From the NCBI GenBank assembly GCA_964390145.1, contig CAYMHB010000002.1, positions 33,714 through 97,713 on the forward strand: 64,000 bases of DNA, read 5' to 3'. The notes beneath the pieces are model-generated. The model had not been told where the DNA came from, made no database searches, and saw only the letters and a program-made list of their open reading frames with translations. This DNA comes from an uncultured Oscillospiraceae bacterium (lineage in GTDB: Bacteria; Bacillota; Clostridia; UMGS1883). Positions 207 to 40,211 of this stretch are shown piece after piece. The position numbers were made by a program, and so were the translations under genes. How positions within the stretch are numbered: the first letter of the stretch is position 1; every line of letters begins with the position of its first letter.

Positions 207-212
207 TAAAAG

Positions 213-242
213 AGCGCACCCTCTCTCGGGGGTGCGCTTTTA
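213..242 (+). terminator. Rho-independent terminator of the upstream partial CDS
   Basis: AGCGCACCC / GGGTGCGCT stem followed by a T-run. Confidence 0.6.
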
Positions 243-399
243 TTGTTCATTTTGTTTATAATATATATCATATTTTTTCAAATTTTGTCAATTTTCCTCT
301 TTACTATCTACTAATATATATGGTATAATATATTGAATTATGCCGTGCGCTTATTTCTATTATATTTATGCACAAAAAAACGCGCTCAAAATACGGGTT

Positions 400-495: not shown

Positions 496-1428
496 ATGAA
501 AAAAGTATTCATCGACGGCAGCGCCGGAACAACCGGGCTACGCATATTGGAAAGGCTTTCAAAAAGAAGTGATATAGAGCTTATAAGGCTTCCCGAGGAG
601 CTTCGTAAGGATAGCGAGGCAAGAAAGAAGGCTCTTAACGAATGTGATATTGCGTTCCTTTGTCTTCCCGACGCGGCGGCAATAGAAGCAGTTAGTATGA
701 TTGAAAACGAAAATGTAGTTGTTCTTGATACGTCTACTGCGCATAGAACTAATGACGAATGGGCATACGGCTTTCCGGAGCTTTCAGAAGAGCATTTTGA
801 AAAAGTTAAATCAGCAAAGAGAATTGCTGTTCCCGGTTGTCACGCAAGCGGATTTATCGCTCTCATCTATCCTCTTATTGAAAAGGGTATTCTAAGCCGC
901 GATGCACTTCTTACCTGTCACAGTATTACGGGATACAGCGGCGGCGGAAAGAGTATGATTGCACAGTATGAAGATAGCGAGAGAGATACTCTCCTTGATT
1001 CTCCCCGTCAGTATAAGCTTGACCAAAGGCACAAGCATCTCCCTGAAATGCTGAAGGTTACAGGGCTTGAAAACGCTCCCATCTTCTGCCCTATCGTTTC
1101 TGATTTTTACAGCGGTATGGTTGTGACAATCCCCGTATTCAAAAGCCAGCTTAACGACGGGTTCGGCATTGAAGATATAAAAAATGCTTACAAAGAAAAG
1201 TACACAGGAAATATTGTTGCATATCAAGATTCCATCAGAGAAGAAGGTCTTATAAGCGCAAATGCACTTTCCTTCAAGGACTCAATGCAGGTAACAGTTG
1301 AAGGAAATGAGGACAGAATTCTTCTTATCGCAAGATATGACAACCTCGGCAAAGGTGCTTCGGGCGCGGCGCTTGAATGTATGAATATCGTAATGGGCGA
1401 GTCTCCCTCGCAGATGCTTGATATCTAA
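496..1428 (+). CDS. argC: N-acetyl-gamma-glutamyl-phosphate reductase (short form)
   Basis: 310 aa. N-terminal Rossmann GSAGTTG, active-site PGCHASG, and arg operon context. Confidence 0.92.
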   Translation: MKKVFIDGSAGTTGLRILERLSKRSDIELIRLPEELRKDSEARKKALNECDIAFLCLPDAAAIEAVSMIENENVVVLDTSTAHRTNDEWAYGFPELSEEHFEKVKSAKRIAVPGCHASGFIALIYPLIEKGILSRDALLTCHSITGYSGGGKSMIAQYEDSERDTLLDSPRQYKLDQRHKHLPEMLKVTGLENAPIFCPIVSDFYSGMVVTIPVFKSQLNDGFGIEDIKNAYKEKYTGNIVAYQDSIREEGLISANALSFKDSMQVTVEGNEDRILLIARYDNLGKGASGAALECMNIVMGESPSQMLDI

Positions 1429-1443
1429 GAAAGGATGTTTATC

Positions 1444-2667
1444 ATGTTTAATATAATAGAAGGCGGTATATGTGCACCTCAGGGATTTAGTGCAAACGGT
1501 ATTCATTGCGGAATCCGTAAAAATCGTACAAAGCGCGATATTGCTCTTATTGTGAGTGATGTTCCCGCTGCTGCCGCTGCTACATATACAACAAACCTTG
1601 TTAAGGGTGCTCCCCTTACTGTGACAAAGGCAAACATCGCTGACGGTTATGCAAGAGCAGTAATCTGCAACAGCGGTAACGCAAACACATGTAACGCTGA
1701 CGGTATTGAAGTGGCTGAAAAAATGTGCTCACTCGTAGCGGACGAACTCGGTATAGATGCAAAAGATGTTATAGTGGCATCAACGGGCGTTATCGGACAG
1801 AAGCTTGATATTGAGCCAATTAAAGATGGACTTCCCGAGCTTGCAAAAGGTCTTGGAAACAGCGCCGAGCACAGCGATTATGCGTCCGAGGGCATTCTTA
1901 CAACAGATACTGTGAAAAAAGAAATCGCAGTAAGCTTTACAATCGGCGGCAAGGAATGTAAAATCGCAGGTATTGCCAAGGGCAGCGGTATGATTCATCC
2001 GAATATGGCTACAATGCTCGTATTCATTACAACCGATGCGGCTATTTCCCCCCCTATGCTTCAGAAGGCACTTTCAGAGGATATTAAAAAGACATTCAAC
2101 ATGGTTAGTGTTGACGGCGATACATCCACAAACGATATGGTGTCCGTAATGGCTAACGGTCTTGCAGGAAACAAGATGATTGAAACAGATGGTGAAGATT
2201 TTGAAATCTTTGCCAAAGCGCTTAATACAGTTACAGTTTACCTGTGCAAAATGATTGCAGGCGACGGCGAAGGCGCTACAAAGATGCTCGAATGTACAGT
2301 CAACGGTGCAAAGGACGAAAAATGTGCAAAGGCAGTTGCAAAGTCTGTTATCTGTTCATCACTTCTCAAGGCGGCAATGTTTGGTGCCGATGCTAACTGG
2401 GGCAGAGTTCTTTGTGCAATCGGCTACAGCGGTGCGGATGTTGATGTAAACAAAATTGATGTTTCCTTTTCTTCAAAGGAAGGCGAAATTGCAGTTTGCA
2501 AAAACGGTGCAGGAATTGATTTTTCTGAAGAAGTTGCGAAGAAGATACTTCTTGAAAAGGATATAAACATCTTAATTAACCTCAATGACGGAGACGAAAC
2601 TGCTACCGCATGGGGTTGCGACTTGACTTACGACTATGTGAAAATCAATGGAGATTATCGAACTTGA
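1444..2667 (+). CDS. argJ: Bifunctional ornithine acetyltransferase / N-acetylglutamate synthase
   Basis: ArgJ hallmarks are present: KGSGMIHPNMATML autoprocessing site and a C-terminal LTYDYVKINGDYRT. Start chosen at the ATG at 1444, with GAAAGGA upstream. Confidence 0.94.
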   Translation: MFNIIEGGICAPQGFSANGIHCGIRKNRTKRDIALIVSDVPAAAAATYTTNLVKGAPLTVTKANIADGYARAVICNSGNANTCNADGIEVAEKMCSLVADELGIDAKDVIVASTGVIGQKLDIEPIKDGLPELAKGLGNSAEHSDYASEGILTTDTVKKEIAVSFTIGGKECKIAGIAKGSGMIHPNMATMLVFITTDAAISPPMLQKALSEDIKKTFNMVSVDGDTSTNDMVSVMANGLAGNKMIETDGEDFEIFAKALNTVTVYLCKMIAGDGEGATKMLECTVNGAKDEKCAKAVAKSVICSSLLKAAMFGADANWGRVLCAIGYSGADVDVNKIDVSFSSKEGEIAVCKNGAGIDFSEEVAKKILLEKDINILINLNDGDETATAWGCDLTYDYVKINGDYRT

Positions 2668-2934
2668 TAAAAGAGAACAACTCAAATGAGGTTGTAAAAA
2701 AGTAGTGAAGAACGCACAAACTGAACCCGTAGGTGTATACAGATACTCCGCGTGGTGAAGTTTGCGCGTAACAAAACGCATAAAATTGAAATTCGCAACA
2801 GCGAATTTCTACATCAAAAATTCGAAGGCTCTTGTTAAATGTTTTAATAAAAGCACTTTTGATTTCTTGCTTTGCGTTTTGTGGTCGGTGCTGCTTTTTG
2901 ACGGCCTGAATACATTACATTGGAGGAACAAAAC

Positions 2935-3789
2935 ATGACAAACGCACAGAGAGCCGAAGTACTTACCCAGGCACTTCCCTACATTCAAAAATACAATAAT
3001 AAGATAATAGTTGTTAAATATGGCGGAAACGCTATGATTAACGACGAACTTAAAGATGCCGTTATGGGCGATATCGTTCTGATGTCTCTTATCGGTATTA
3101 AAGTTGTGCTTGTGCATGGCGGCGGTCCTGAAATTACACAGATGCTTAATCAGGTTGGCAAGAAGAGTGAGTTTGTCAATGGTCTTCGTGTTACAGATAA
3201 GGAAACTGTTGACATTGTACAGATGGTCCTTGCAGGTAAGGTTAACAAGAACCTTGTAAACCTTCTTCATAACAAGGGCGGAAACGCTATCGGTCTGTGC
3301 GGCATTGACGGACATATGATTGAGGCGGAAGTTCTTAATCCCGAACTTGGCTATGTAGGCGAAATAACAAATGTCAATGTTGCTCCTATTACCGATGTAC
3401 TTGAAAAGGGTTATATTCCCGTTATTTCTACAGTCGGCTGTGACAAGGAAGGTAATGTTTATAACATCAACGCTGATACTGCGGCTGCAAAAATCGCAGG
3501 AATACTCGGCGCTGAAAGTCTTATTTCCATGACAGATATTGAGGGTATTCTTCGTGATAAGGACGACCCCTCTACTCTTATTTCCAAAATCTATACTACT
3601 GAGGCACCTGCTCTTGTTGAGGAGGGTGTTATCTCCGGCGGTATGATTCCCAAGGTTGAGTGTTGTATTGACGCTATCAACAGTGGTGTAAGAAAGGTAT
3701 TTATAATCGACGGCAGAATTCCCCACTCCATACTTATCGAAACTTTGACCAATGAAGGTATCGGTACTATGTTCGTCCGTGGGGAGTAA
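2935..3789 (+). CDS. argB: Acetylglutamate kinase
   Basis: VVKYGGNAM and VLVHGGGPEI motifs. GGAGG RBS before the ATG at 2935. Confidence 0.94.
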   Translation: MTNAQRAEVLTQALPYIQKYNNKIIVVKYGGNAMINDELKDAVMGDIVLMSLIGIKVVLVHGGGPEITQMLNQVGKKSEFVNGLRVTDKETVDIVQMVLAGKVNKNLVNLLHNKGGNAIGLCGIDGHMIEAEVLNPELGYVGEITNVNVAPITDVLEKGYIPVISTVGCDKEGNVYNINADTAAAKIAGILGAESLISMTDIEGILRDKDDPSTLISKIYTTEAPALVEEGVISGGMIPKVECCIDAINSGVRKVFIIDGRIPHSILIETLTNEGIGTMFVRGE

Positions 3790-3862: not shown

Positions 3863-5026
3863 ATGAACACTTTTGAAAAAGACAAACAGTTTGTCGCTCC
3901 TACCTATGCGCGTTTTCCGCTTGAAATCACAGGCGGTAAGGGGGCAATCCTTACAGGTAGCGACGGCAAGGAATATATAGACCTCGGAAGCGGTATTGCG
4001 GTAAATACATTCGGTGCTCGTGACGATGAATGGGTAAATGCGGTAAAGGCACAGCTTGACAAGTTTGCACACACATCAAACCTTTACTACACATCGCCCT
4101 GCGCTGACCTCGCCGAAATGCTGTGTGCCCGTACCGGAATGAAAAATGTTTTCTTCTCCAATTCGGGTGCAGAGGCAAACGAAACCGCAATCAAGGCGGC
4201 AAGAAGATACGGTGCACTTAATAAGGGTACGGATTACTACACAATCATTACTCTTGAAAAGAGTTTCCACGGAAGAACGCATACAACTCTTGCGGCAACG
4301 GGTCAGGAAAATTTCCATAAGGAATTCCTTCCTCTTACGGAGGGCTTTGTTCACACTCCGCCCAATGATATTGAAAAGCTGCGCGAAGCAGTAAAAAACA
4401 ACAAATGCTGCGCGATAATGATTGAACTTGTTCAGGGCGAGGGTGGTGTAAATGCTCTTGAACGCGAATTTGTTGATGAAATTGCAAAGCTTTGCAAGGA
4501 AAACGATTTAATTCTTATCGCTGACGAAGTGCAGACAGGTAATGGCAGAACGGGTAAGCTTTACGCATATATGCACTACGGCATTACACCCGATGTTGTA
4601 TCTACTGCAAAGGGACTTGGCGGAGGTCTTCCACTCGGCGCTACGATGCTTGGCGAAAAAGTGAAAGATATTTTCACTCCCGGACTTAACGGCTCGACAT
4701 TCGGTGCAAACCCTGTTTGTTGCAGCGGTGCGATAAGTATTCTTGAAAGATTGACCGATGATTTCCTTGCCGAGGTTTCGAAAAAGGCACAACTTGTTCG
4801 CGATACCTTGTCGGGTGCGGAAGGAATCGAGGATATTTCGGGACTTGGCCTTATGATAGGCATTAAAACGGTTAAAGAGGCGAAGGAAGTTGTAAACTAC
4901 TGTATGGAGCACGGCGTACTTGTCCTTACAGCAAAAGACAGAGTAAGGCTTCTTCCCCCGCTTAACATAGAAACACAGTTGCTCTCAGAAGCACTTGAAA
5001 TTATTAAGGAGGCATGTAAATTATGA
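3863..5026 (+). CDS. argD: Acetylornithine aminotransferase (class III PLP)
   Basis: SNSGAEANE, DEVQTGNGRTGK and TAKGLGGG (PLP lysine) motifs. Its stop overlaps the argF start (ATGA). Confidence 0.9.
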   Translation: MNTFEKDKQFVAPTYARFPLEITGGKGAILTGSDGKEYIDLGSGIAVNTFGARDDEWVNAVKAQLDKFAHTSNLYYTSPCADLAEMLCARTGMKNVFFSNSGAEANETAIKAARRYGALNKGTDYYTIITLEKSFHGRTHTTLAATGQENFHKEFLPLTEGFVHTPPNDIEKLREAVKNNKCCAIMIELVQGEGGVNALEREFVDEIAKLCKENDLILIADEVQTGNGRTGKLYAYMHYGITPDVVSTAKGLGGGLPLGATMLGEKVKDIFTPGLNGSTFGANPVCCSGAISILERLTDDFLAEVSKKAQLVRDTLSGAEGIEDISGLGLMIGIKTVKEAKEVVNYCMEHGVLVLTAKDRVRLLPPLNIETQLLSEALEIIKEACKL

Positions 5027-5925
5027 AACACTTTCTGAAACTCGGAGATTTGAGCAAGGAAGAAATTGTAGAAATTCTCGACCTTGCGGATAAACTTAAA
5101 TATGAAAAGAGAAACGGTATTGAGCATCATCTTTTAAAGGGTAAGACTCTCGGTATGATTTTCCAGAAGTCTTCCACAAGAACACGTGTATCTTTTGAGG
5201 TTGGCATGTTTGACCTTGGCGGCAGCGCACTTTTCCTCAGTCCCAGAGACTTACAGATAGGTCGCGGTGAGGTTGTTCAGGATACTGCACGCGTGCTTTC
5301 AAGATTCCTTGACGGTATTATGATTCGTACTTTTGAACAGAAAGAGGTTGAGGATTTTGCCTCCTACGGCGATATCCCGATTATTAACGGTCTTACCGAC
5401 TACTGTCATCCCTGTCAGGTGCTTGCAGACCTTATGACAATCCGCGAAAAGAAGGGCAAACTTGAGGGACTTAAAATGTGTTTCGTCGGCGACGGTAACA
5501 ATATGGCAAACTCCCTTATTGTCGGCGGTATCAAGATGGGTATGGAAGTTTCAATCGCTTGTCCTGAGGGTTACGAGCCTGATGCCGAAATTATGAAGTG
5601 GGCAAAGGAAACAGGTAAATTCACCTGCACTCCCGATATATACGAAGCGGCAAAGGGTGCCGATGTTCTTTACACTGATGTATGGGCATCTATGGGTCAG
5701 GAAGAAGAATTTAATGAAAGAGCAATCATCTTTAAAGATTACCAGATAAATTCTGAACTTATGAAAGTTGCAAACGAGGGCGCGATGGTGCTTCACTGTC
5801 TCCCTGCGCACCGCGGAGAAGAAATCACTGCGGAAATTATCGAGCAGCACGCTGACGAAATTTTCGAAGAGGCAGAAAACAGACTTCATGCACAGAAAGC
5901 CGTTATGGTTAAGTTAATGGCATAA
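5023..5925 (+). CDS. argF: Ornithine carbamoyltransferase
   Basis: SSTRTRVSF, HPCQ, DVWASMG and HCLP motifs. Confidence 0.93.
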   Translation: MKHFLKLGDLSKEEIVEILDLADKLKYEKRNGIEHHLLKGKTLGMIFQKSSTRTRVSFEVGMFDLGGSALFLSPRDLQIGRGEVVQDTARVLSRFLDGIMIRTFEQKEVEDFASYGDIPIINGLTDYCHPCQVLADLMTIREKKGKLEGLKMCFVGDGNNMANSLIVGGIKMGMEVSIACPEGYEPDAEIMKWAKETGKFTCTPDIYEAAKGADVLYTDVWASMGQEEEFNERAIIFKDYQINSELMKVANEGAMVLHCLPAHRGEEITAEIIEQHADEIFEEAENRLHAQKAVMVKLMA

Positions 5926-5959
5926 TTTTTCTCTACACTATTTGGAAAGGCATGGTTTT

Positions 5960-7006
5960 ATGAAAGCATATTTGATTCTGGAAAACGGCAGTGTTTTCGA
6001 AGGCACACTAATCGGTGCCGAGAGCGAAACTGTCGGTGAAATAGTTTTCTCAACTACAATGGGAAGTTATATAGAAGCACTGACCGACCCCTCCTATTAC
6101 GGACAGATTCTCGTGCAGACATATCCCCTTATCGGTAACTACGGAATGATTTATTCCGATATGGAAAGCAATAAGATTCACGCGAAAGGTTATGTAGTGC
6201 GCGAGATGTGTGATATCCCTTCAAACTTCCGTTGCGAAGGAACTCTTGACAGTTTCCTTAAGGAGCAGGGTATTGTGGGAATATGCGGTATCGACACACG
6301 TGAAATCACAAAGATTATCCGCGAAGAAGGTACAATGGCAGCGCGCATCACAACAAAGGCTCCTGATGGAGAAAAGATTACACTTCCTGAAATTAAGGAC
6401 GCTGTGGGCGAAGTTTCCACGAAGGAAAAATACACAGTTGGTGAAGGAAATGTTAAAATCGCACTTCTTGACCTTGGTACAAAGAAGAGTGTTGTGAACA
6501 TCCTTTCAGCGCGCGGAGCAAGTGTGGATGTTCTTCCCTTCACTACAAAGGCAGACGAACTTTTAAAATACGATGCGATATATCTTTCAGACGGTCCGGG
6601 AAATCCCGATAACTGCAAAGATATCGCAGAAGAAATCAAAAAGGTATTTGGAAAGAAACCCATTCTTGCAACGGGACTTGGTCACGAGCTTCTCGCGATG
6701 GCAAACGGTGCAAAGTGTGAAAAACTCCACCACGGACACCACGGCGCAAATCAGCCTGTAAAGCAGATTGAAAGCGGACGAGTTTATATAACTGCGCAGA
6801 ATCATAACTACGCAGTTGTGAGCAATACTCTCCCCGACTTTGCAAAGGTTACTTACGAAAACCTTAACGACAAGAGTGTTGAGGGTATCGAATACATTGG
6901 AAAGAACGCCGTTTCCGTTCAGTTTGCTCTTATCGAGGGCGAAGGTCCTAACGAAACAGGTTTTATTTATGACAAATATTTCGAAATGATTGGAGGTAAG
7001 CACTAA
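5960..7006 (+). CDS. carA: Carbamoyl-phosphate synthase small (glutaminase) subunit
   Basis: CarA N-domain plus a class-I amidotransferase domain. Its stop TAA overlaps the carB ATG by 1 nt. Confidence 0.92.
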   Translation: MKAYLILENGSVFEGTLIGAESETVGEIVFSTTMGSYIEALTDPSYYGQILVQTYPLIGNYGMIYSDMESNKIHAKGYVVREMCDIPSNFRCEGTLDSFLKEQGIVGICGIDTREITKIIREEGTMAARITTKAPDGEKITLPEIKDAVGEVSTKEKYTVGEGNVKIALLDLGTKKSVVNILSARGASVDVLPFTTKADELLKYDAIYLSDGPGNPDNCKDIAEEIKKVFGKKPILATGLGHELLAMANGAKCEKLHHGHHGANQPVKQIESGRVYITAQNHNYAVVSNTLPDFAKVTYENLNDKSVEGIEYIGKNAVSVQFALIEGEGPNETGFIYDKYFEMIGGKH

Positions 7007-10000
7007 TGCCTAAGAATAAAGACATCAAAAAGGTTCTCGTTATTGGCTCAGGTCCTATTGTAATCGGACAGGCTGCAGAGTTTGACTACGCAGGCGCGCA
7101 GGCATGCCGAGTGCTTCGTGATGAGGGCGTAAATATTGTCCTTGTTAACTCCAACCCTGCTACAATTATGACAGACAAGGCGCTCGCAGATGAAATTTAT
7201 CTTGAGCCGCTTACAACAGATACAATCAAGAGAATTATTGAAAAGGAACGTCCCGACAGTCTCCTTGCATCACTTGGCGGACAGACAGGTCTTACAATTG
7301 CGATGCAGCTTGATAAGGAAGGCTATCTTGACAAAATGGGCGTAAAGCTCATTGGTACAAACGCCGAAGCGATTGACCGTGCAGAAGACCGTGAGCTTTT
7401 CAAGGAAACAATGCTCAAAATCGGTCAGAGCTGTATTCCGTCCGATATCGCAACAACTGTTGACGATTCTCTTGCAATTGCAGAAAAAATCGGTTACCCC
7501 GTAATCGTACGTCCTGCTTTCACGCTCGGTGGTGCAGGCGGCGGTGTTGCATATGACCGCGACACGCTTGCAAAAATTGCAAATAATGGTCTTACACTTT
7601 CGCCCATTACTCAGGTACTTATTGAAAAGTACATCTACGGATGGAAAGAAGTAGAATTTGAAGTTATGCGCGACCACGCAGGGAACGCAATCACAATCTG
7701 CTCTATGGAAAATGTTGACCCCGTTGGTATTCATACGGGCGACAGTATCGTTGTTGCTCCTGCGGCTACACTTTCTGATAAAGAGTATTCAATGCTCAGA
7801 AAGGCAGCACTTGACATTATTACCGAACTCAAGATTGAAGGTGGATGTAACTGTCAGTTCGCACTTAATCCCGATAGTTTTGAATATGCAGTTATTGAGG
7901 TTAACCCCCGTGTTTCCCGTTCGTCTGCTCTTGCAAGTAAGGCGACAGGTTACCCGATTGCAAAGGTTACTACAAAAATTGCTCTCGGTTATACACTTGA
8001 CGAAATTAAAAACGACGTTACCGGCGTGACTTATGCTTGTTTCGAGCCTGCCGTTGACTATATGGTTGTTAAGTTCCCCAAGTGGCCGTTTGACAAGTTT
8101 GTGTATGCCGACAGAAAACTCGGTACACAGATGAAGGCAACGGGTGAGGTAATGTCTATCGGCAATTCCTTTGAATCTGCTCTTATGAAGGCTATAAGAG
8201 GTGCAGAGCTTAAGACAGAAACTCTTTTCCACAAGGAAGTTCACGCAATAGAAGATATCGAAAAGAAACTTTACGACCTTGACGACCTTCGTATATTTAC
8301 TGTTTATGAAGCGCTTGTAAGAGGAATATCCGTTGACAGAATCAACGAAATTACACGTATTGACAAGTGGTTCCTTTCAAAGATTAAAAATATCGTTGAT
8401 TATGAAAAGAGCATCCTTGGAAATCTTACCGAAGAACTTTATGAAAAGGGTAAAAAGCTTGGCTTTACAGACAAGGCACTTGAGGAAATCAGTGGATGCA
8501 AGGTTCCCACTCACAAAAACTGTGTTTACAAGATGGTTGACACCTGCGGCGGCGAATTTGCCGCAAAGACACCTTACTTCTATTCAACATATGACGAAAA
8601 GTGTGAAGCAAGAGCAGTTTCTACCAATAATAAAAAGGTTATCGTTTTGGGCTCAGGTCCTATCAGAATCGGTCAGGGTATCGAGTTTGACTACTCCTCC
8701 GTTCATTGTGTATGGGCGCTCAAGGATATGGGTTACGAGGTTATTATCATAAATAACAACCCCGAAACTGTTTCAACAGACTTTGACACAGCGGACAGGC
8801 TTTATTTTGAGCCGCTTACTCCCGAAGATGTAATGAACGTTATCGAGGTTGAAAAACCTGAGGGCGTTGTTGTTGCATTCGGCGGACAGACTGCAATCAA
8901 ACTTGTTAAGTTCCTTGACGAAAGCGGTATCAAAATCCTCGGTACATCTGCAAAGAGTATTGATATGGCAGAAGACCGCGAGCAGTTTGACGCGCTCCTT
9001 GAAAAGTTCAACATCAAGAGACCCAGCGGTCTTTCTGTAATGACGAAAGAAGAGGCTCTTTCCGCGGCAGAAACACTTGGTTATCCCGTTCTGCTTCGTC
9101 CTTCATATGTAATCGGCGGTCAGAATATGACAATCGCTTATAAGGAAGAAGATGTTGTGCAGTATATGGACATCATCCTCGCGCAGAAGATTGAAAACCC
9201 CGTACTCGTAGATAAATATATGATGGGCAAGGAACTTGAAGTTGATATCATAAGCGACGGCAAAGATGTTCTTATCCCCGGTATTATGGAACACGTTGAG
9301 CGTGCAGGCGTGCACAGCGGCGACTCCATCGCCGTATATCCCCCGTTCAATGTAACCGACAAAATGCTTGACAAAATTGTTGACTGCTCAACAAAACTTG
9401 CTCTTTCTCTTAAGACGCAGGGACTTATCAACATTCAGTATGTTATATATGATAACGAACTTTACGTTATCGAGGTTAACCCCCGTGCATCAAGAACAGT
9501 TCCCTATATCAGCAAGGTAACGGGTATCCCCATGATTGACCTTGCTACACAGGTTATGCAGGGCGCACCCCTTCTTTCCCTCGGATACGGAAGCGGACTT
9601 TACAAGATGCCTCCCTACTACGCAGTTAAGGTTCCCGTATTCTCGTTTGAAAAACTTTCGGGCATCAACTCAATTCTCGGTCCTGAAATGAAATCTACAG
9701 GCGAGGTACTCGGTATCGGTAAAACTCTTAATGAAGCACTTTACAAGGGACTTATGGCGGCAGGTTTCAACCTTGAAAGCCGCGGCGGAGTATATATCAG
9801 CGTTGATTCGAAGGATAAGTACGACCTTATCGAGCTTGCAAAGAAACTCCACGATGCAGGTCTTGAACTCTATGCCGATGAAATGAATGCGCTCATCATT
9901 GACTCTCTCGGTATCCCCGTTGAAACTGTTGACGGAGAAAAGATTTACTCACTTATCGAAAGTGAAAAGGTTGGTTATATAATCCACACCAATTCAGGTC

Positions 10001-11010
10001 GTCCCAAGGAAATTGAGAAGTTTATCAGACTTCATCGTCGTGCGCTTCAGCTCAGCATTGCGTGTCTTACATCGCTTGATACTGCACACGCACTTGCGGA
10101 CATTCTCCTCAGCCGTTTCAATCAGTACAATACCGAACTTACAGATATAGCGAAACTTCGTACGGAAAAGCTTAACATACCCTTTATCAAAATGCAGGGT
10201 ACGGGCGATGACTATATCTTCATCAACAACTTTGACGGTAAGATTGCATTCCCCGAGGCTCTTGCTATCGTATTCTCCGACCGTCACAGAGGTATCGGTG
10301 CAGACGGACTTGTTCTTATTGAAAAGTCAGAGGTTGCCGATGCGAAGATGCGTATATTCAACACAGACGGCAGCGAAGGTAAAATGGCAGGCAACTCCAT
10401 CCGCTGCGTAGGTAAGTATCTCTATGATAACGGATATACAACTCACCGCCATATCACAATCGAAACTGCAAGCGGTATCAGAAAGCTTACCCTTCATCTG
10501 TTCGACCACAAGGTTACAAGCGTAACTGTTCAGATGGGCGATCCTCAGTTTGATCCGAAAGCTATTCCCGTTGATATGCCCGGTGATAAGGTTATAAACG
10601 AAAAGGTTACCATCGGCGGCAAGGATTACAACATCACTTGTCTTTCTATCGGTAATCCGCACTGCGTAGTTATCTGTGATAATGTTTACAACATTGATGT
10701 TAAAACAATCGGTCCCCGTTTTGAAAACGCATCTGTCTTCCCTGAAAGAATCAATACTGAATTTGTCAAGATTATTGACAAGCGCACAATCAGAATGAGA
10801 GTATGGGAACGCGGTAACGGCGAAACACAGGCTTGCGGTACAGGTGCCGTAGCGGCAGCAATTGCGGCAGTTGAAAACGGATACTGCGAAAAGGATACAG
10901 ATATCAGCGTAAGAGTTGAGGGTGGCGAACTTATCGTCCGCTACACAGACGAAGGCGTATTCCTCACAGGCGATGCTGAAAAGGTATTCGAGGGAATTTA
11001 CGAATACTAA
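7006..11010 (+). CDS. carB: Carbamoyl-phosphate synthase large subunit fused in frame to a DapF-like (diaminopimelate epimerase fold) domain
   Basis: 1334-aa uninterrupted ORF. Residues 1 to ~1056 form a complete CarB: two ATP-grasp repeats and an MGS-like allosteric domain. Residues ~1057-1334 align end to end with DapF. Confidence 0.9.
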   Translation: MPKNKDIKKVLVIGSGPIVIGQAAEFDYAGAQACRVLRDEGVNIVLVNSNPATIMTDKALADEIYLEPLTTDTIKRIIEKERPDSLLASLGGQTGLTIAMQLDKEGYLDKMGVKLIGTNAEAIDRAEDRELFKETMLKIGQSCIPSDIATTVDDSLAIAEKIGYPVIVRPAFTLGGAGGGVAYDRDTLAKIANNGLTLSPITQVLIEKYIYGWKEVEFEVMRDHAGNAITICSMENVDPVGIHTGDSIVVAPAATLSDKEYSMLRKAALDIITELKIEGGCNCQFALNPDSFEYAVIEVNPRVSRSSALASKATGYPIAKVTTKIALGYTLDEIKNDVTGVTYACFEPAVDYMVVKFPKWPFDKFVYADRKLGTQMKATGEVMSIGNSFESALMKAIRGAELKTETLFHKEVHAIEDIEKKLYDLDDLRIFTVYEALVRGISVDRINEITRIDKWFLSKIKNIVDYEKSILGNLTEELYEKGKKLGFTDKALEEISGCKVPTHKNCVYKMVDTCGGEFAAKTPYFYSTYDEKCEARAVSTNNKKVIVLGSGPIRIGQGIEFDYSSVHCVWALKDMGYEVIIINNNPETVSTDFDTADRLYFEPLTPEDVMNVIEVEKPEGVVVAFGGQTAIKLVKFLDESGIKILGTSAKSIDMAEDREQFDALLEKFNIKRPSGLSVMTKEEALSAAETLGYPVLLRPSYVIGGQNMTIAYKEEDVVQYMDIILAQKIENPVLVDKYMMGKELEVDIISDGKDVLIPGIMEHVERAGVHSGDSIAVYPPFNVTDKMLDKIVDCSTKLALSLKTQGLINIQYVIYDNELYVIEVNPRASRTVPYISKVTGIPMIDLATQVMQGAPLLSLGYGSGLYKMPPYYAVKVPVFSFEKLSGINSILGPEMKSTGEVLGIGKTLNEALYKGLMAAGFNLESRGGVYISVDSKDKYDLIELAKKLHDAGLELYADEMNALIIDSLGIPVETVDGEKIYSLIESEKVGYIIHTNSGRPKEIEKFIRLHRRALQLSIACLTSLDTAHALADILLSRFNQYNTELTDIAKLRTEKLNIPFIKMQGTGDDYIFINNFDGKIAFPEALAIVFSDRHRGIGADGLVLIEKSEVADAKMRIFNTDGSEGKMAGNSIRCVGKYLYDNGYTTHRHITIETASGIRKLTLHLFDHKVTSVTVQMGDPQFDPKAIPVDMPGDKVINEKVTIGGKDYNITCLSIGNPHCVVICDNVYNIDVKTIGPRFENASVFPERINTEFVKIIDKRTIRMRVWERGNGETQACGTGAVAAAIAAVENGYCEKDTDISVRVEGGELIVRYTDEGVFLTGDAEKVFEGIYEY
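10174..11010 (+). other. DapF-like C-terminal domain of the carB ORF (first catalytic Cys replaced by Ala)
   Basis: Contains IPFIKMQGTGDDY, FNTDGSEGKMAGNSIRC, GNPHCV, NTEFV and RVWERGNGETQACGTGA. Canonical DapF has (M/N)CGNG(I/L)RC where this domain reads MAGNSIRC. Confidence 0.8.
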
Positions 11011-11095
11011 TTCAAATGAGAAAGTTTTATTTTACAAAAGCATTTATGAATATTGATGTATAAAATCAATAAATTTTCGCATATTTTCAAAATTT

Positions 11096-11114
11096 TATGA
11101 ATTTTTATGCAAAA
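11096..11114 (+). promoter_or_regulatory. ARG-box-like operator upstream of argG
   Basis: TATGAATTTTTATGCAAAA is a near copy of the block at 410-428. An additional box-like TTCAAAATTTTATGAA overlaps it just upstream. Confidence 0.45.
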
Positions 11115-11118
11115 AGGC

Positions 11119-11147
11119 TTGCATAATTATACACTAAGTGTTATACT
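11119..11147 (+). promoter_or_regulatory. Sigma-A type promoter for argG-argH
   Basis: TTGCAT (11119-11124), 17-bp spacer, TATACT (11142-11147). Confidence 0.55.
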
Positions 11148-11189
11148 GTTATCAATTAAGAAGTACACTATATAGAAGGAGTTTTCAAA

Positions 11190-12413
11190 ATGGATAAGAA
11201 AGATATCAAAAAGGTAGTTCTCGCCTACTCAGGCGGTCTCGACACATCAATCATCATTCCGTGGCTTAAGGAAAACTACAACAACTGTGAAGTTGTTGCA
11301 GTTGCAGGTAACGTTGGTCAGAACGACGAGCTTGACGGCCTTGAAGAAAAGGCTATTAAGACAGGTGCATCAAAGCTTTATGTACTTGACCTTACAGATG
11401 ATTATGTAGATAACTACATCATCCCCACTATGAAGGCAGGCGCAATTTACGAGGAATACCTTCTCGGTACAAGCCATGCACGTCCCTGTATTGCAAAGGG
11501 TCTTGTTGACATCGCAATCAAGGAAAACGCAGACGCTATCTGCCATGGCTGTACAGGTAAGGGTAATGATCAGGTTCGTTTCGAGCTTGCTATCAAGCAC
11601 TTTGCTCCCGAGATGCCCATTATCGCTCCCTGGCGTGAATGGGACATCAAGTCTCGTGACGAAGAAATCGATTACGCAGAGGCACACAATGTTCCCCTTA
11701 AGATAAACCGCGAAACAAACTACTCCAAGGATAAGAACCTCTGGCACCTCAGCCATGAAGGTCTTGACCTTGAAGATACAGGTAACGAACCGCAGTACGA
11801 AAAGGAAGGTTTCCTTGAAATGGGCGTATCTCCCGTTACTGCTCCCGATGAACCTACATATATCACAATTGATTTTGAAAAGGGTGTTCCCGTAGCATTC
11901 AACGACAAGAAGATGAGCGCGAAGGATATCATCCTTGCACTTAACGAAGTTGGCGGCAAGAACGGTATCGGTATCCTTGACATCGTTGAAAACCGTCTTG
12001 TTGGTATGAAGTGCCGTGGCGTATATGAAACTCCCGGTGGTGCTATTCTTTACAAGGCACACAGCGTACTTGAATCAATCTGTCTTGACAGAATGACACT
12101 TCATCACAAGCAGCGTCTTGCAATCACATTTGCAGAGCTTGTTTATGACGGTCAGTGGTTCACTCCTCTCCGCGAGGCACTTTCCGCATTTGTTGATAAG
12201 ACACAGGAAAATGTTACAGGTAAGGTAAGACTTAAACTTTACAAGGGTAACATGATTAACGCAGGTGTATGGAGCGATTACAGCCTTTACTCAGAAGAAA
12301 TCGCAACATTCGGCGAAAGCGATTACAACCAGAAGGATTCAGAAGGATTTATCAATCTTTATGGTCTTCCGATTGCAGTACAGGCTATGGTTGACGCTAA
12401 GAATAATAAGTAA
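11190..12413 (+). CDS. argG: Argininosuccinate synthase
   Basis: [12 protein letters not shown]-binding motif; 407 aa typical of ArgG. Confidence 0.95.
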
Positions 12414-13854: not shown

Positions 13855-13955
13855 GAAGCGTGCCGCTTCACCCATTTCGCGTTCAAACCAAACTTAAAAC
13901 CAACAAATGTTGCTCGCGATAAAAACAAAAAACCACTATCAACCACATAATAAAA

Positions 13956-13987
13956 AGCCCTGAAAATTACAATTTTCAGGGCTTTTG
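13956..13987 (+). terminator. Rho-independent terminator after argH
   Basis: AGCCCTGAAAATT..AATTTTCAGGGCT stem followed by TTTT. Confidence 0.7.
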
Positions 13988-25765: not shown

Positions 25766-26569
25766 TTATCTTCTGCCTGAATTAGCATAAATATAAAATA
25801 AACCAAGTCCTGTAACAACTATTCCTATTGCTGCAAACACGATACTTCCGCTTATTGCGAGGTTTCGCAGCATCAAAGCCGAAGTAAAGTTGAAAACTCC
25901 GTGGCAAACTGCCGCGGCAAAAATATTTTTCGTCCTGTGATAAATTATTCCAAGGAATATTCCTATGAAGGCGGTAAAAATGCTCTGGAAAAGAAGCCCA
26001 TGCGATACACCGAATATTATAGCCTGAAGCAAAATCGCTGCCCACGGGCGCATAATTTTTTTAAGTTCACCCATAATGAGACCGCGGAACAAAAATTCTT
26101 CAAATAGCGGCGCTACAATCAAAACACTGAAAAACGCTATGGCAAAGTCCATTCTTGTAGAAAGACGCGGAGCAACCACTGCCGATTCTATTATGGATTT
26201 TTCAAACACTTCCACGTTTTGAATCAAATAGTAGTACACTGCCACGATAAGTCTGGTTCCCAATGCCACAACTGCTGACATTAAAAAAATCATCAGCGGA
26301 ACTTTCCTTGTATGAATGTATTCCGAAATATCTTTTTTTCTGAATTTACATATCAGAAGATATACCCATATGGAAACGAGAGAAATTATAACTGAAAGTG
26401 CAAATGTGTTATCATTTGCACTTTTCTCAATTTCAGTCGCCGAAAGTTTGCCACCCATTTTAAGCCATTGAGTGTATATGAGATAGATGACAAAACCTAC
26501 AATCGGATATAACACAGCATATGTAAGCGCAAAAAATAGACCTTTAATTCTGCTTATTGCCCTTTTCAA
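25766..26569 (-). CDS. CPBP-family intramembrane glutamic endopeptidase (CAAX protease-like)
   Basis: EEFLFRG, FGVSH and HGVFN motifs in a polytopic membrane protein. Confidence 0.85.
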   Translation of the reverse strand: MKRAISRIKGLFFALTYAVLYPIVGFVIYLIYTQWLKMGGKLSATEIEKSANDNTFALSVIISLVSIWVYLLICKFRKKDISEYIHTRKVPLMIFLMSAVVALGTRLIVAVYYYLIQNVEVFEKSIIESAVVAPRLSTRMDFAIAFFSVLIVAPLFEEFLFRGLIMGELKKIMRPWAAILLQAIIFGVSHGLLFQSIFTAFIGIFLGIIYHRTKNIFAAAVCHGVFNFTSALMLRNLAISGSIVFAAIGIVVTGLGLFYIYANSGRR

Positions 26570-27377
26570 CTGAGTTCTCCTCTTTCAAAACCGATATTAT
26601 AATTTTCTTGGGACATTTTTCTGCGCAAATACCGCAAGAAGTACACTTTTCGTAGTCAATCACTGCGTGATTATTTACCACGGTTATTGCACCTGCTTCG
26701 CAGTTCTTTTCGCAAATCTTACAGCCGATACATCCAACGGAGCACTTTTCCTTCATCTGTGCACCCTTGTCGCATGACTGACATTTTACAACATATTTTG
26801 TTTTTCTGGGCACAAGTTCGATAAGCTTTTTAGGACATACTGCTACGCATTCCCCACAGCCGCCACACTTGTCAGTATCAATAACTGCAATACCGTCAAC
26901 GATTGAAATAGCACCGCGTGAGCAAACCGTTATACAGCTGCCAAAGCCAAGGCAACCATAGTCACATGATTTCTGGCCGGCCCCCTGAAGTGTAGCGATT
27001 GCACCGCAATCCTTGATGCCTGTATAATCAAACTTATCTGTTGCAACATCCTTTGTTCCATGGCAACGAACAACGGCGATTTTTTCTTCAACCGCTTCGC
27101 TCTCTACGCCCAAGATTTCAGCGATAGCGTCTGCAACATTCTGTCCGCCGGGGCTGCAAGCATTGATTTTTGCGCCTTCCTTTGAGATTGCGCTGGCATA
27201 TGCGCTACAACCTGCAAAACCGCAGCTACCGCAGTTTGCACCGGGAAGAACCTCTGTAATAGCTTCCGCTGTTTCGTCTTTTTCAACGGCAAATATTTTT
27301 GACGCAATTGCAAGAAGTGCTCCAAGGACAAGTCCTAATGCGCCCATTGAGAGCACAGGATAAATTATATCTTTCAT
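26544..27377 (-). CDS. rnfB: Rnf complex subunit B (polyferredoxin)
   Basis: N-terminal TM helix, a CGSCGFAGC cluster, and several CxxCxxCxxxCP 4Fe-4S motifs. Confidence 0.9.
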   Translation of the reverse strand: MKDIIYPVLSMGALGLVLGALLAIASKIFAVEKDETAEAITEVLPGANCGSCGFAGCSAYASAISKEGAKINACSPGGQNVADAIAEILGVESEAVEEKIAVVRCHGTKDVATDKFDYTGIKDCGAIATLQGAGQKSCDYGCLGFGSCITVCSRGAISIVDGIAVIDTDKCGGCGECVAVCPKKLIELVPRKTKYVVKCQSCDKGAQMKEKCSVGCIGCKICEKNCEAGAITVVNNHAVIDYEKCTSCGICAEKCPKKIIISVLKEENSVEKGNKQN

Positions 27378-27395
27378 AGTTTACTCAATCCTTTC

Positions 27396-27998
27396 TTAAA
27401 AAGACATTCCCTGAAATCCCAAAAATGCCATGGCAAGAAGAGACGCGCTGATAAGTGCGATAGGCATACCTTCTAATGCTTTGGGGATTTTTGAGCTTTC
27501 GAGTCTTTCACGAACACCTGCAAAAAGCACAATTGCAAGCATAAAGCCAACACCTGCAGAAAAGCCGTTTATAATTGTTTCTATAAGCGTATAGCTTGCT
27601 GAAGTTGAGATAACAGATGCAGTTCTTACGTTAAGAAGAGCTACACCCAGTACTGCACAGTTTGTAGTAATAAGAGGAAGATAAATTCCGAGCGCACTGT
27701 ATAGTGAAGGAATAGACTTTTGAAGGAACATTTCAACAAACTGTACAAGTGCCGCAATGATTACGATAAATGCTATTGTCTGCATATATTCGATATTAAG
27801 AGGCATAAGGATATATTTCTGACAAAGCCATGTCATAATGGAGGCAAGTGTCATTACGAATGTAACTGCCATGCCCATACCAAGAGCGGTATCAAGTTTC
27901 TTTGATACACCAAGGAAAGGACATATGCCGTAGAATTTTACAAGTACGAAGTTCTGTACGAAAATTGATGTTAATGCGATTCCTATAAGCGCCGACAT
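27396..27998 (-). CDS. rnfA: Rnf complex subunit A
   Basis: 200-aa polytopic RnfA/NqrE-type sequence in operon position. Confidence 0.92.
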   Translation of the reverse strand: MSALIGIALTSIFVQNFVLVKFYGICPFLGVSKKLDTALGMGMAVTFVMTLASIMTWLCQKYILMPLNIEYMQTIAFIVIIAALVQFVEMFLQKSIPSLYSALGIYLPLITTNCAVLGVALLNVRTASVISTSASYTLIETIINGFSAGVGFMLAIVLFAGVRERLESSKIPKALEGMPIALISASLLAMAFLGFQGMSF

Positions 27999-28586
27999 TT
28001 ATCTCTCCCCTTTCTTATTCCTAATGACATTGATCAATCCGAGAAGTATTCCAAGTGTAAGGAAGCCCCCGGGAGGAAGTAACATAATTGTCGCAGGGGA
28101 TGTGATTCCTACGCTGTAGCCAAGAATTGTACCTGCACCAAGGATTTCTCTGATAGAAGAAATGATTGAAAGTGCAATTGTAAATCCAAGACCCATACCT
28201 ATACCGTCTGCTGCTGATTTTAATATGCCGTTTTTAGAAGCAAATGCTTCTGCACGAGCGAGAATGATACAGTTAACAACGATAAGCGGGATGAAAAGAC
28301 CGAGTGATTTTGAAAGAGCAGGTATATATGCCTTCAAAACGAGGTCAACGATTGTTACGAATGCAGCAATGATTACAACATATGCTGCGATTCTGATTTT
28401 CTGGGGGATGATTTTTCTCAAAAGTGAGATGAGCACATTTGAGAGTGTAAGTACGAAGGTAACTGAAAGTCCCATACCGATACCGTTAGAAAGCGCTGTT
28501 GTAACAGCGAGCGTGGGACACATACCCAAAAGCTGCATAAAGGTAGGATTTTCTGTGATTATACCATTTTTTATTGTCTTAATCAT
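27999..28586 (-). CDS. rnfE: Rnf complex subunit E
   Basis: 195-aa RnfE/NqrD-type sequence (GMCPTLAVT). Confidence 0.92.
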   Translation of the reverse strand: MIKTIKNGIITENPTFMQLLGMCPTLAVTTALSNGIGMGLSVTFVLTLSNVLISLLRKIIPQKIRIAAYVVIIAAFVTIVDLVLKAYIPALSKSLGLFIPLIVVNCIILARAEAFASKNGILKSAADGIGMGLGFTIALSIISSIREILGAGTILGYSVGITSPATIMLLPPGGFLTLGILLGLINVIRNKKGER

Positions 28587-29128
28587 TTAGAATTCGCCTC
28601 CCTTACTGCTTCATCAACAAGAGCAACTGACATTTCTATACCTTTTGCAATAGCGCGGCTGCTTACTGTTGCACCTGTTATTGCTGTGAACTGATTCGGG
28701 CTGTCTGTTGCGCTCTTAACTACTTCGAGCATTGAATTTTTTCCGACAAACTGAGATTTGAAGCTATCCTCAACAATTTTCGCGCCGAGGCCTGCCGTTT
28801 CGCTGTGACTTAAAATTTCAATTCCGTAAACACCTGCTTCTATATCAAGGCCAACCATCATAGCGATATCTCCGCCATAGCCTGTAGTTGTTACCTTTAC
28901 ACAGTAGCCGATTACTTCGTCACCCTTTTTAGCTGCTGATACAGATTCATTCAATTCCTGGAAAGAGTCTGCATCGGGAATGATTTTCTGCATAGCTTCC
29001 TCAGTTGCTTTCTCCTCTGCCTCTGCAATACGAGGAGCAGTGATTTTGTTTACACCTGCAAGAAGAAGTGCCGCCACAAGTGTTATCATACAAAGAATAG
29101 ATGAAAGTTTAATAAATTCTTTTTTCAT
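28583..29128 (-). CDS. rnfG: Rnf complex subunit G (FMN-binding)
   Basis: N-terminal anchor, with SGATVSS/AITGATVSS as the covalent FMN site. Confidence 0.88.
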   Translation of the reverse strand: MKKEFIKLSSILCMITLVAALLLAGVNKITAPRIAEAEEKATEEAMQKIIPDADSFQELNESVSAAKKGDEVIGYCVKVTTTGYGGDIAMMVGLDIEAGVYGIEILSHSETAGLGAKIVEDSFKSQFVGKNSMLEVVKSATDSPNQFTAITGATVSSRAIAKGIEMSVALVDEAVREANSK

Positions 29129-29141
29129 TATCTATACCCCC

Positions 29142-30122
29142 TTATTCCTTCACAAAGCCAAACGCCTTGGGTGTTGTCCACTTTTCTATAAGGGGTGTAA
29201 GGATATTCATAAGAAGTATTGCAAAACTCACACCTTCGGGGTAGCCGCCCCAGAATCTAATGATACAGGTAATAACACCGCAGCCTATACCGAATATTAC
29301 CTGACCCCACGTTGTTGTGGGAGTGGTTACATAGTCGGTAGCCATAAATACTGCACCGAGGAGAACACCGCCCGAAAGAACTGCAGCAAGAGGATTCTGG
29401 ATGCTTGCCACAGCGCTATCTCCACACAGGAGCGTCATTACAAACACACTGCCTATGAACGAAAGCGGGATTCTGATAGAAATCACCTTGCGGATGAGAA
29501 GGTATGCAAGGCCGATAAGAATTGCAAGTGCGCAAGTCTCACCAATACATCCGGGAAGAGGGTTTCCATTTTCAAAAACGCCTAAAAACTGCTCTTTTAT
29601 ACTTGGAGCTGCCCCTGCCCATTCCTTGGAAAGAGGTGTTGCACCTGTAACAATATCTGCTTTTTTCATAAAGAAATGAACACTTTTTGATGGATAAGTT
29701 GTAAGTGCTACAGGGAAGGAGGCAAGTACAAACACGCGACCGATAAGGGCGGGGTTCATAAAGTTTTGTCCAATGCCACCAAAAAATTGTTTTGCAACTA
29801 CAATAGCAATAAATGCACCAATAACAATTATGTAATAAGGAACATTGACAGGCAAACAGAAGGCAAATAAAAGACCCGTTACAACGGCGCTTAAATCGCC
29901 TATTGTGCGCTTCTGGTGAGTCAAAGTTGTATAAAGCCATTCAAAGCCCACACATGAGATAACGCTTACAATCATAACTGCAAGTGCGCGTTGGCCAAAA
30001 AGAAGTACTGAAGCCAATGCTACCGGAAAAAGAGCAAAGATAACATCATACATGATATCCTGAATGCTATTTTTCTCTCTGATATGCGGAGTAGATGAAA
30101 CTGAGAGTTTTAAGTTTTCCAT
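29142..30122 (-). CDS. rnfD: Rnf complex subunit D
   Basis: 326-aa RnfD/NqrB-type membrane protein. Confidence 0.92.
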   Translation of the reverse strand: MENLKLSVSSTPHIREKNSIQDIMYDVIFALFPVALASVLLFGQRALAVMIVSVISCVGFEWLYTTLTHQKRTIGDLSAVVTGLLFAFCLPVNVPYYIIVIGAFIAIVVAKQFFGGIGQNFMNPALIGRVFVLASFPVALTTYPSKSVHFFMKKADIVTGATPLSKEWAGAAPSIKEQFLGVFENGNPLPGCIGETCALAILIGLAYLLIRKVISIRIPLSFIGSVFVMTLLCGDSAVASIQNPLAAVLSGGVLLGAVFMATDYVTTPTTTWGQVIFGIGCGVITCIIRFWGGYPEGVSFAILLMNILTPLIEKWTTPKAFGFVKE

Positions 30123-30125
30123 ATC

Positions 30126-39983: not shown

Positions 39984-40025
39984 TTTTATGTACTCCTTGT
40001 ATATAAAATTTAACTTAATATGTAG

Positions 40026-40203
40026 CCCCGCAGTGCCGTTTAACACGGATTATTCTAAACCTGCATGTGCAGGTGGGTGACTTGCTCACCGCTTATGGGT
40101 TTCTCTCTGCAAATGGAGAGCCTACACGCCACGGCAAGACGACTCAGTCTCCCTTAATAGATGTGTTGGTTAAAATAAATCCTTTATTGCGCACACCGCA
40201 GGG
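40026..40203 (-). ncRNA. Structured G+C-rich 5' leader of the SLH gene (candidate cis-regulatory RNA, class unknown)
   Basis: Closing helix CCCUGCGGUG/CACUGCGGGG, a second 12-bp helix and at least three internal hairpins. It lies downstream of a TTGATA-17-TATAAT promoter. Confidence 0.4.
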
Positions 40204-40211
40204 ATGAGTTC

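Follow-up and report, generated by a model that had tools for sequence, protein, structure and literature searches.

Diaminopimelate epimerase (DapF) works with two opposed cysteines, Cys73 and Cys217 in E. coli, that act as its acid/base pair, and the C73A/C217A double mutant is inactive (PMC6061791); the E. coli protein also binds and activates the RNA pyrophosphohydrolase RppH (PMC6061791, PMC4227774). Neither a natural DapF lacking Cys73 nor a fusion of DapF to CarB, the large subunit of carbamoyl-phosphate synthetase (CPSase), was described anywhere in our full-text literature searches. Here we analyse such a protein, encoded in a 64,000-nucleotide stretch of DNA from an uncultured Oscillospiraceae bacterium (contig CAYMHB010000002.1; this whole stretch is "the window" below), where the carB gene of an arginine operon reads in frame into a DapF-like domain whose first catalytic Cys is Ala. 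A first-pass annotation of the window had called this architecture unknown from characterised systems, which stands for the literature searched but not for sequence collections: it is common in public metagenome-assembled genomes (MAGs), where databases name the fused proteins just "carbamoyl-phosphate synthase large subunit".

Architecturally, the fusion is a single open reading frame (ORF) at 7006..11010 on the forward strand, starting with ATG, ending with TAA (11008-11010) and encoding 1334 residues, and both the ORF listing and a nucleotide reading of 10150-10200 give a junction without a stop (Table 1). Two CarB equivalogs of NCBIfam match residues 1-1034 (NF003671 at 1456 bits, cutoff 599; TIGR01369 at 1428 bits, cutoff 1027), and the DapF equivalog TIGR00652 matches residues 1059-1332 with 276 bits on the whole protein and 281 bits on the domain alone (cutoff 114.65). 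With one ORF, no stop at the junction and equivalogs of both families above cutoff, the read-through fusion proposed in the first-pass annotation is real. Pfam recognises CPSase_L_D1 twice, CPSase_L_D2 twice, D3 once and DAP_epimerase on the fused protein; its MGS match is weak (21.1 bits, cutoff 24.1), and the C-terminal region of CarB is alignable to residues 769-1051 of E. coli CarB. Judged by its full domain set and the adjoining carA, the CarB part is an ordinary CarB.

Structurally, the fused domain is a DapF of full length, as had been claimed: beyond the span of TIGR00652, it matches DapF of B. anthracis (2otn) with E = 2.8e-69, and an AlphaFold2 model of the last 440 residues (mean predicted local distance difference test score, pLDDT, 85; predicted template modelling score, pTM, 0.63) superimposes in Foldseek on DapF crystal structures with target-normalised template modelling (TM) scores of 0.85-0.91. 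The last ~20 residues of CarB (FNQYNTELTDIAKLRTEK) lead directly into DapF residue ~2. The earlier statement that there is no linker is therefore correct in that nothing is inserted, with the nuance that CarB's own ~20-residue tail of low confidence precedes DapF; since pLDDT is below 60 in this tail and at the junction, the tail may serve as a flexible tether. No Shine-Dalgarno-like purine run lies upstream of the internal Met of "IKMQG" in the sequence, in keeping with the reported lack of an internal ribosome-binding site.

Functionally, the domain departs from DapF in its active site. Approximately 290 DapF domains, among them 221 of the Ala type and 57 canonical ones, were aligned to E. 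coli DapF, whose numbering is used here; this reference has 274 residues, with the expected ones at positions 11, 44, 64, 73, 157, 159, 190, 208, 209, 217 and 268. The window's "GKMAGNSIRCV" aligns with "GKSCGNGLRCV" of 2otn and with "MCGNGIRC" of 9mro and 3ejx; from this alignment to solved DapF structures it follows that the first catalytic Cys is replaced by Ala, whereas "QACGTGA" aligns with the same "QACGTGA" of solved DapF and the second catalytic Cys is kept, both as first annotated. Position 73 is Ala in 221/221 clade members, and Cys stands there in 57/57 canonical sequences as well as in each solved DapF of the alignment.

Little else in the pocket has changed. All four substrate-pocket blocks pointed out earlier (FNTDGSE, GNPHCV, NTEFV and RVWERGNGETQACGTGA) were found in the domain, and of the DapF substrate-binding set (N11, N64, G74-N75, N157, N190, E208-R209, G218-S/T219) the window retains everything except N11, which is Asp. 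Across the Ala-type sequences, whose identity to the window domain reaches down to ~60%, N64, G74, N75, H159, N190, E208, R209, C217, G218 and T219 are invariant (221/221), with N157 kept in 220; at the site that corresponds to Tyr268, a residue of E. coli DapF dimerisation, Y or F is retained. More broadly, canonical clostridial DapF has 104 conserved columns, of which 75 stay conserved with the same residue in the clade and most of the others are only mildly relaxed. The changes that define the clade are C73A (100%), S211N (~99%, against S in 55/57 canonical sequences), M260L (99%), C18N (99%) and N11D (~80%; of the 221, 178 have D and 43 have N, against N in 57/57 canonical sequences).

Two candidates for a residue taking over from Cys73 were tried and rejected. 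The thiol might have hopped from 73 to 76, where ~40% of relatives read AGNC and the window AGNS, but position 76 is a variable small residue across the clade (S 119, C 86, A 14, with V, N and G also occurring): it is Ala in seven of the nearest relatives (L006-L009, L012-L014; 88-93% domain identity), and genomes with 88-98% identity to the window differ from one another in having S or A. Because S, C and A vary among such close relatives, position 76 is not a substitute base, and the Ser that the first-pass annotation had flagged there is nothing special. Asp11, likewise, is no universal replacement base, with ~20% of the clade retaining Asn.

The fusion and the Ala variant both recur in relatives, which were surveyed in two ways: a protein search with the whole fused protein, clustered at 90% identity, and a locus survey with one genome per GTDB species, which gave at least 80 loci. 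Labels beginning with L stand for loci and those beginning with P for proteins from database searches. The protein search returned at least 120 clusters of fused proteins of 1334-1347 residues, 69-95% identical to the window protein. Their source MAGs, of gut and rumen origin, bear the labels Ruminococcaceae, Oscillospiraceae, Clostridia or "Eubacterium sp.", with contigs of up to 2 Mb, and nearly all clusters in which both motifs were readable carry xAGNx together with ERGNGET. All 80 listed species loci are fused, with open frames of 1336-1395 codons, run-offs at contig ends and a few frames broken by scattered stops; position 73 is Ala or Gly in 79 of them (Gly in two), and the closest listed relative is the goat-colon MAG RGIG2049, at 98%.

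This recurrence bears directly on whether two ordinary genes could have been made to look like one by a missed stop or frameshift at the junction, or by a base-call error at the Cys codon. Breaks do occur within carB of related MAGs, namely in-frame stops in L001 (TAG, 7941-7943), L002 (TAA, 7021-7023) and L093 (TAG, 6401-6403) and a scaffold gap of 10 N in L096 (1555-1564), but they sit at differing places in conserved CarB sequence and none at a gene boundary, while the frame stays open throughout more than 120 protein clusters and the majority of the 80 independent assemblies. As for a base-call error, the first-pass annotation had already held that a single one could not explain the Ala; going from GCA to TGY takes three changes, and relatives use four Ala codons at this position (GCA 38, GCG 26, GCC 10, GCT 7). 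Since the same open frame and the same Ala stand in 79 of 80 species genomes, neither chance nor error accounts for them, and the artefact is effectively refuted.

The same breaks, together with gene calls at contig edges that frequently begin at the conserved Met of "MKSTGEV", are the reason why many public proteins of 350-480 residues appear as "MGS + DAP_epimerase"; we rejected a genuinely split MGS+DapF gene, or recoding, in favour of fragments and errors of these kinds (scattered stops, N-gap, contig-edge calls). A stand-alone DapF of the Ala type was rejected as well, the short Ala matches being truncated calls of the fusion, with one possible exception. This protein (P0084, 278 residues, on a 1 kb contig) is seemingly stand-alone and has Ala73 and a Thr at Asn75, while its other markers (N11, C18) are of the canonical type; the tree places it apart from the fused Ala clade, and it could reflect an independent loss or poor sequence. 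Other unusual arrangements came up among the matches: in P0275 (512 residues), an ornithine carbamoyltransferase-like N-terminus runs directly into the end of the CarB allosteric domain, after which comes a DapF-like domain with Gly73, probably as an assembly chimera or through a large deletion across argF-carA-carB; among representatives at 50% identity, P0370 and P0407 have a ~400-residue N-terminal region whose start resembles the CarB N-terminus, followed by canonical DapF, and P0311 and P0331 are 687-residue DapF fusions with an unrelated N-terminal region.

Evolutionarily, the DapF-like domain is under strong purifying selection: in pairwise Nei-Gojobori estimates for ten close genomes (45 pairs), the ratio of non-synonymous to synonymous substitution rates (dN/dS) has a median of 0.056 in the DapF-like part and of 0.037 in CarB. 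The domain thus shows the pattern by which a pseudoenzyme is recognised, in which a catalytic residue of essential function is lost while the rest stays under purifying selection: C73A is fixed, dN/dS is 0.056 and the pocket is invariant. The loss of Cys73 is no quirk of one genome; across a large clade it is old, fixed and selected, and such a state fits a neo-functionalised enzyme or a ligand-binding pseudoenzyme better than it fits decay.

When the diagnostic columns are masked, a neighbour-joining tree gathers 69 of the 70 Ala-type sequences sampled into one clade, pointing to a single origin. Fusions that have both Cys also exist: L045 (the Peptococcaceae bacterium UBA5757 MAG, fusion at 6800-10840), P0273 (1349 residues, full length), P0102, P0023, P0272 and P0074/L096. 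Given these sister fusions, the fusion is older than the Cys loss, and since the junctions of P0102 and P0074/L096 still hold DapF's own start Met ("...INHMRTDK-MKLEFTKMQG..."), their sequences suggest that the carB frame came to run directly into a dapF gene. N211 is already present in P0273 and P0023, which still retain C73, M260 and C18; in the likely order of events, S211N followed the fusion, C73A arose next along with M260L and C18N, and N11D came later in a subclade.

The allosteric domain to which the DapF-like domain is attached (window 9826-10110) has itself changed. Compared with E. coli CarB it shows T974D, T977N, a deletion of K993, N1015H and T1017N, all at residues that we take to be the contacts for uridine and inosine monophosphate (UMP/IMP), while E783, D791 and T1042, presumably residues of the ornithine site, are kept and E892 is Val. 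By these substitutions the window CarB would have a degenerate UMP/IMP site of the E. coli type and a conserved ornithine site. In the AlphaFold2 model (pTM 0.63), the DapF-like domain shares no confident fixed interface with the allosteric domain.

Table 1. Positions in the window of the fused gene, its diagnostic codons, the surrounding operon and two further elements. Residue numbers are those of the fused protein unless marked E. coli.
Feature	Position	Strand	Basis or remark
Terminator-like hairpin	210-241		Upstream of operon
Promoter-like site	300-329		Upstream of argC
argC	496-1428	+	NCBIfam equivalog above cutoff
argJ	1435-2667	+	NCBIfam equivalog above cutoff
argB	2920-3789	+	NCBIfam equivalog above cutoff
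argD	3863-5026	+	NCBIfam equivalog above cutoff
argF	5023-5925	+	NCBIfam equivalog above cutoff
carA	5942-7006	+	NF009475, 401 bits; adjoins CarB part
CarB part	7006..10170	+	Residues 1-1055; NF003671, TIGR01369, Pfam domains; two preATP-grasp/ATP-grasp units and oligomerisation domain
MGS-like allosteric domain	~9826-10071	+	Within CarB part
Native C-terminal tail of CarB	~10111-10170	+	Within CarB part
DapF-derived domain	10171..11007	+	Residues 1056-1334, in frame with CarB; TIGR00652, PDB alignment, AlphaFold2
Asp at substrate-binding Asn11 (E. coli)	GAT 10207..10209	+	Alignment
Ala at first catalytic Cys (E. coli Cys73)	GCA 10387-10389	+	Residue 1128; PDB alignments
Ser at E. coli position 76	TCC 10396-10398	+	Residue 1131; variable small residue, three after the lost Cys
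Asn at E. coli position 211 (ERG-N-GET)	AAC 10816..10818	+	Clade-specific, goes with Cys73 loss
Second catalytic Cys (E. coli Cys217)	TGC 10834-10836	+	Residue 1277; C in 221/221 clade members
argG	11190-12413	+	NCBIfam equivalog
argH (longest ORF)	12265 (GTG, inside argG) to 13854	+	NCBIfam equivalog
Terminator-like hairpin	13953-13986		Downstream of argH
Rnf operon	26544-31478	-	See text
6S/SsrS RNA gene	40021-40207	-	See text

Taken together, residue conservation suggests that the fused domain probably has a new role, and canonical two-thiol epimerisation of LL- to meso-diaminopimelate (DAP) by it appears very unlikely because no clade-universal residue can replace Cys73. With the pocket and Cys217 retained, the domain would therefore be doing something that needs a DAP-shaped ligand. 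We posit, tentatively and with a little less than even confidence, that this DapF-derived domain binds DAP or a close analogue without two-thiol epimerisation and serves an arginine-specific CPSase as a regulatory or structural module. In such a scenario, carB would have come to read into dapF, and the L-face thiol Cys73 would later have become Ala, accompanied by S211N, M260L and C18N and usually by N11D, while Cys217, the thiol of the D face, and the remaining pocket residues were held invariant by strong purifying selection; the domain would keep the DapF fold and the binding of DAP or a very close analogue, and would be retained as a service to CPSase. Its likeliest role would be that of a ligand-responsive clamp, on the basis that the lobes of DapF close on their substrate; the clamp would be tethered to the MGS-like allosteric domain with its degenerate E. 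coli-type UMP/IMP site, and dimerisation of the DapF type may also bridge CPSase protomers.

Several observations weigh against a module of this kind. Binding by itself gives no obvious need for invariant Cys217, His159 and Glu208, whose conservation fits continued catalysis at least as well; the AlphaFold2 model lacks confident interdomain packing (pTM 0.63; junction pLDDT <60); and why DAP should control an arginine-specific CPSase is not physiologically obvious. Moreover, if the carriers make lysine or peptidoglycan of the DAP type, the proposal requires another route to meso-DAP, through a canonical dapF, dapF2 or ddh. A dapF2 of the pyridoxal-phosphate (PLP) type has been described as such a route (PMC9026213). 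In the 64 kb window we found no second dapF, and no dap or lys genes elsewhere; none of the 80 listed loci has a second dapF within 10 kb of the fusion. The assembly accessions of four canonical dapF matches do not overlap with those of fusion carriers. In related Clostridia, stand-alone canonical dapF genes follow glnA and an ANTAR regulator gene (P0070, P0099) or are themselves followed by a gene for a DapL-like aminotransferase (P0070, P0089).

Alternatives to a binding module include continued catalysis. The domain may be a working single-thiol catalyst, or else a covalent or ligand-gated sensor, physically coupled to CPSase, which we regard as unlikely but as carrying a sizeable minority of the probability. 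If this is true, gut Clostridia would, as they radiated, have turned a cofactor-free two-base epimerase into a new activity or a new allosteric input, one possibility being that the cell-wall and lysine precursor DAP is sensed to gate arginine synthesis; we know of no carbamoyl-phosphate synthetase with such a logic. A one-thiol enzyme of altered chemistry, to which we assign a similar minor share, would use the Cys217-type thiolate to take the alpha-proton at the D-configured centre of DAP or a DAP-like substrate, and without an opposing acid the outcome could be elimination, solvent exchange or one-way conversion, perhaps of an arginine-linked metabolite. Such an enzyme would be expected to keep what is in fact invariant in the 221 sequences, that is, Cys217, His159, Glu208 and the carboxylate-binding helix N-termini (G74-N75, G218-T219), under the low dN/dS reported above, and the Cys73 side has been remodelled specifically and then fixed (A73, N211, L260) instead of decaying at random. 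The fold also hosts one-base and non-thiol chemistry, PhzF and the 3-hydroxyproline dehydratases being structural neighbours in Foldseek, and according to Koo, Blanchard and co-workers single-Cys DapF mutants reportedly still eliminate hydrogen fluoride from 3-fluoro-DAP. On the other hand, a standard arginine operon suggests no substrate with a beta-leaving group, Cys73 has given way to Ala or Gly and no new polar catalytic group is universal to the clade (Asp11 occurs in only ~80%), and the residues of the distal site are unchanged, so that any new substrate must look almost exactly like DAP.

Were the domain still the cell's DAP epimerase, the protein would be a bifunctional CarB-DapF in which water, Asp11 or another group replaces Cys73; we consider this rather improbable. 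It would explain a TIGR00652 score far above the equivalog cutoff, the retention of all checked substrate contacts except position 11, the strong purifying selection and the lack of any other dapF, be it in the window or, for the 80 genomes, within 10 kb of the fusion, and the sister fusions with both Cys are presumably active DapF. Yet Cys73 is universal in the canonical and solved DapF compared, no substitute is universal (position 76 being S, C or A, Asp11 absent in ~20% and Gly73 present in some), and the setting is an arginine operon, not a dap or lys context, whereas the related canonical dapF adjoins the DapL-like aminotransferase gene. Distinctly less probable still is an inert passenger or a purely structural, ligand-free oligomerisation domain, kept since its removal would destabilise CarB: the dimerisation position equivalent to Tyr268 is kept as Y or F and the fusion has no inserted linker, as this would have it, but ten buried ligand-contact and catalytic residues that are invariant in 221 sequences down to ~60% identity would go unexplained, and so would a dN/dS near that of CarB. 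A ligand-binding module of CPSase remains our preferred, if tentative, reading.

The genomic surroundings are those of arginine synthesis. Rather than being associated with lysine or DAP genes, the fusion is embedded in argCJBDF-carA-...-argGH, an operon of standard arginine genes only, and the order argC-argJ-argB-argD-argF-carA-carB::dapF'(-argG-argH) is kept in most of the 80 listed loci. The terminator scan lists no terminator-like site on the forward strand at 11010-11190, between the fusion and argG, and an Rfam scan gave no riboswitch or T-box near the operon. Because the match to the ArgH hidden Markov model begins only at residue 77 of the longest argH ORF, its true start is probably near ATG 12490. 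A hand check against the sequence found all coordinates in the first-pass annotation exact. Elsewhere in the window lie a 6S/SsrS RNA gene (full-length RF00013, 102 bits against a gathering score of 46) and an operon for an Rnf-type ion-translocating ferredoxin:NAD+ oxidoreductase, with genes for an RnfC-like protein, RnfD, FMN_bind (RnfG), two Rnf-Nqr membrane subunits and an Fe-S RnfB-like protein.

Annotation has blurred the line between the two families in the other direction too. A number of DapF of ~280-300 residues with canonical Cys (P0065, P0068, P0070, P0073, P0099; L089-L092) are labelled "carbamoyl-phosphate synthase large subunit" or "carB" (JGI or NCBI), and of these mislabelled proteins P0070 and P0099 are stand-alone genes by context; the carB labels on stand-alone DapF look like annotation transfer from the fusion proteins.

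Compared with known systems, the domain is nearest to DapF itself (EC 5.1.1.7; TIGR00652, PF01678; 2otn, the cyanobacterial 9mro and the H. influenzae and E. coli enzymes), with which it shares the two-lobed fold (TM 0.85-0.91), the substrate contacts and the second catalytic Cys; identity to 2otn is ~50% by eye in the sequence alignment and 41% over the Foldseek structural alignment, and identity to canonical clostridial DapF is 58-63% (alignment A2). It differs in Ala73, S211N, M260L, C18N, N11D, the fusion to CarB and the location in an arginine operon. Since the first catalytic Cys, Asn11 and the lysine-pathway context are all missing while the other testable marks of DapF are present, the domain should not be filed as EC 5.1.1.7, and metabolic reconstructions that score it as DapF may wrongly predict lysine or DAP prototrophy. 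The CarB-DapF fusions with the Cys pair have the same architecture and the same junction ("NTELVDIN.MR..K", then DapF residue 1-2), and some carry N211 as the window clade does, but they keep MCGN(A/G)IRC, M260, C18 and N11 and are presumably active epimerases; in L045 carA is present but, unlike in the window operon, arg genes are absent within 10 kb. The steps from fusion through S211N and C73A with M260L and C18N to N11D offer a natural path along which to study the making of a pseudoenzyme or the gain of new chemistry.

On the CarB side, E. coli CarB (PDB 1bxr, 1ce8) has the same domain set, the adjacent carA and the ornithine-site residues E783, D791 and T1042; unlike it, the window protein carries an extra C-terminal domain of 279 residues and does not conserve the UMP/IMP-site residues. 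CPSase is a standard textbook case of allostery, as DapF is of two-base epimerisation without a cofactor, and their conserved covalent union would be a new regulatory or catalytic solution, with an epimerase disarmed on one face yet held by selection nearly as tight as that on CarB, in abundant uncultured gut and rumen Clostridia. For a change of chemistry, the one-Cys enzymes of the proline racemase type are the precedent, in which loss of one of two opposed Cys redirects racemase chemistry, and trans-3-hydroxy-L-proline dehydratase (6r76, 4k7g) has a related pseudo-symmetric fold and is a structural neighbour in Foldseek at only 12-15% identity. In the dehydratases, however, the lost Cys is Thr and the substrate has a beta-hydroxyl leaving group; in the window domain it is Ala, the Cys/Thr catalytic pair was not found (Ala/Cys stands in its place), no such substrate is indicated, and the Pro_racemase model (PF05544) gives a partial match (residues 1103-1211) of 23.5 bits against a cutoff of 27, so that the racemase-to-dehydratase parallel drawn in the first-pass annotation holds as an analogy but not as kinship within that family. 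For a regulatory role, the closest parallel is E. coli DapF-RppH, in which the DapF fold serves as a protein-binding regulator of an unrelated enzyme; unlike the window fusion, that association is non-covalent, its DapF is catalytically intact and its partner is a Nudix hydrolase.

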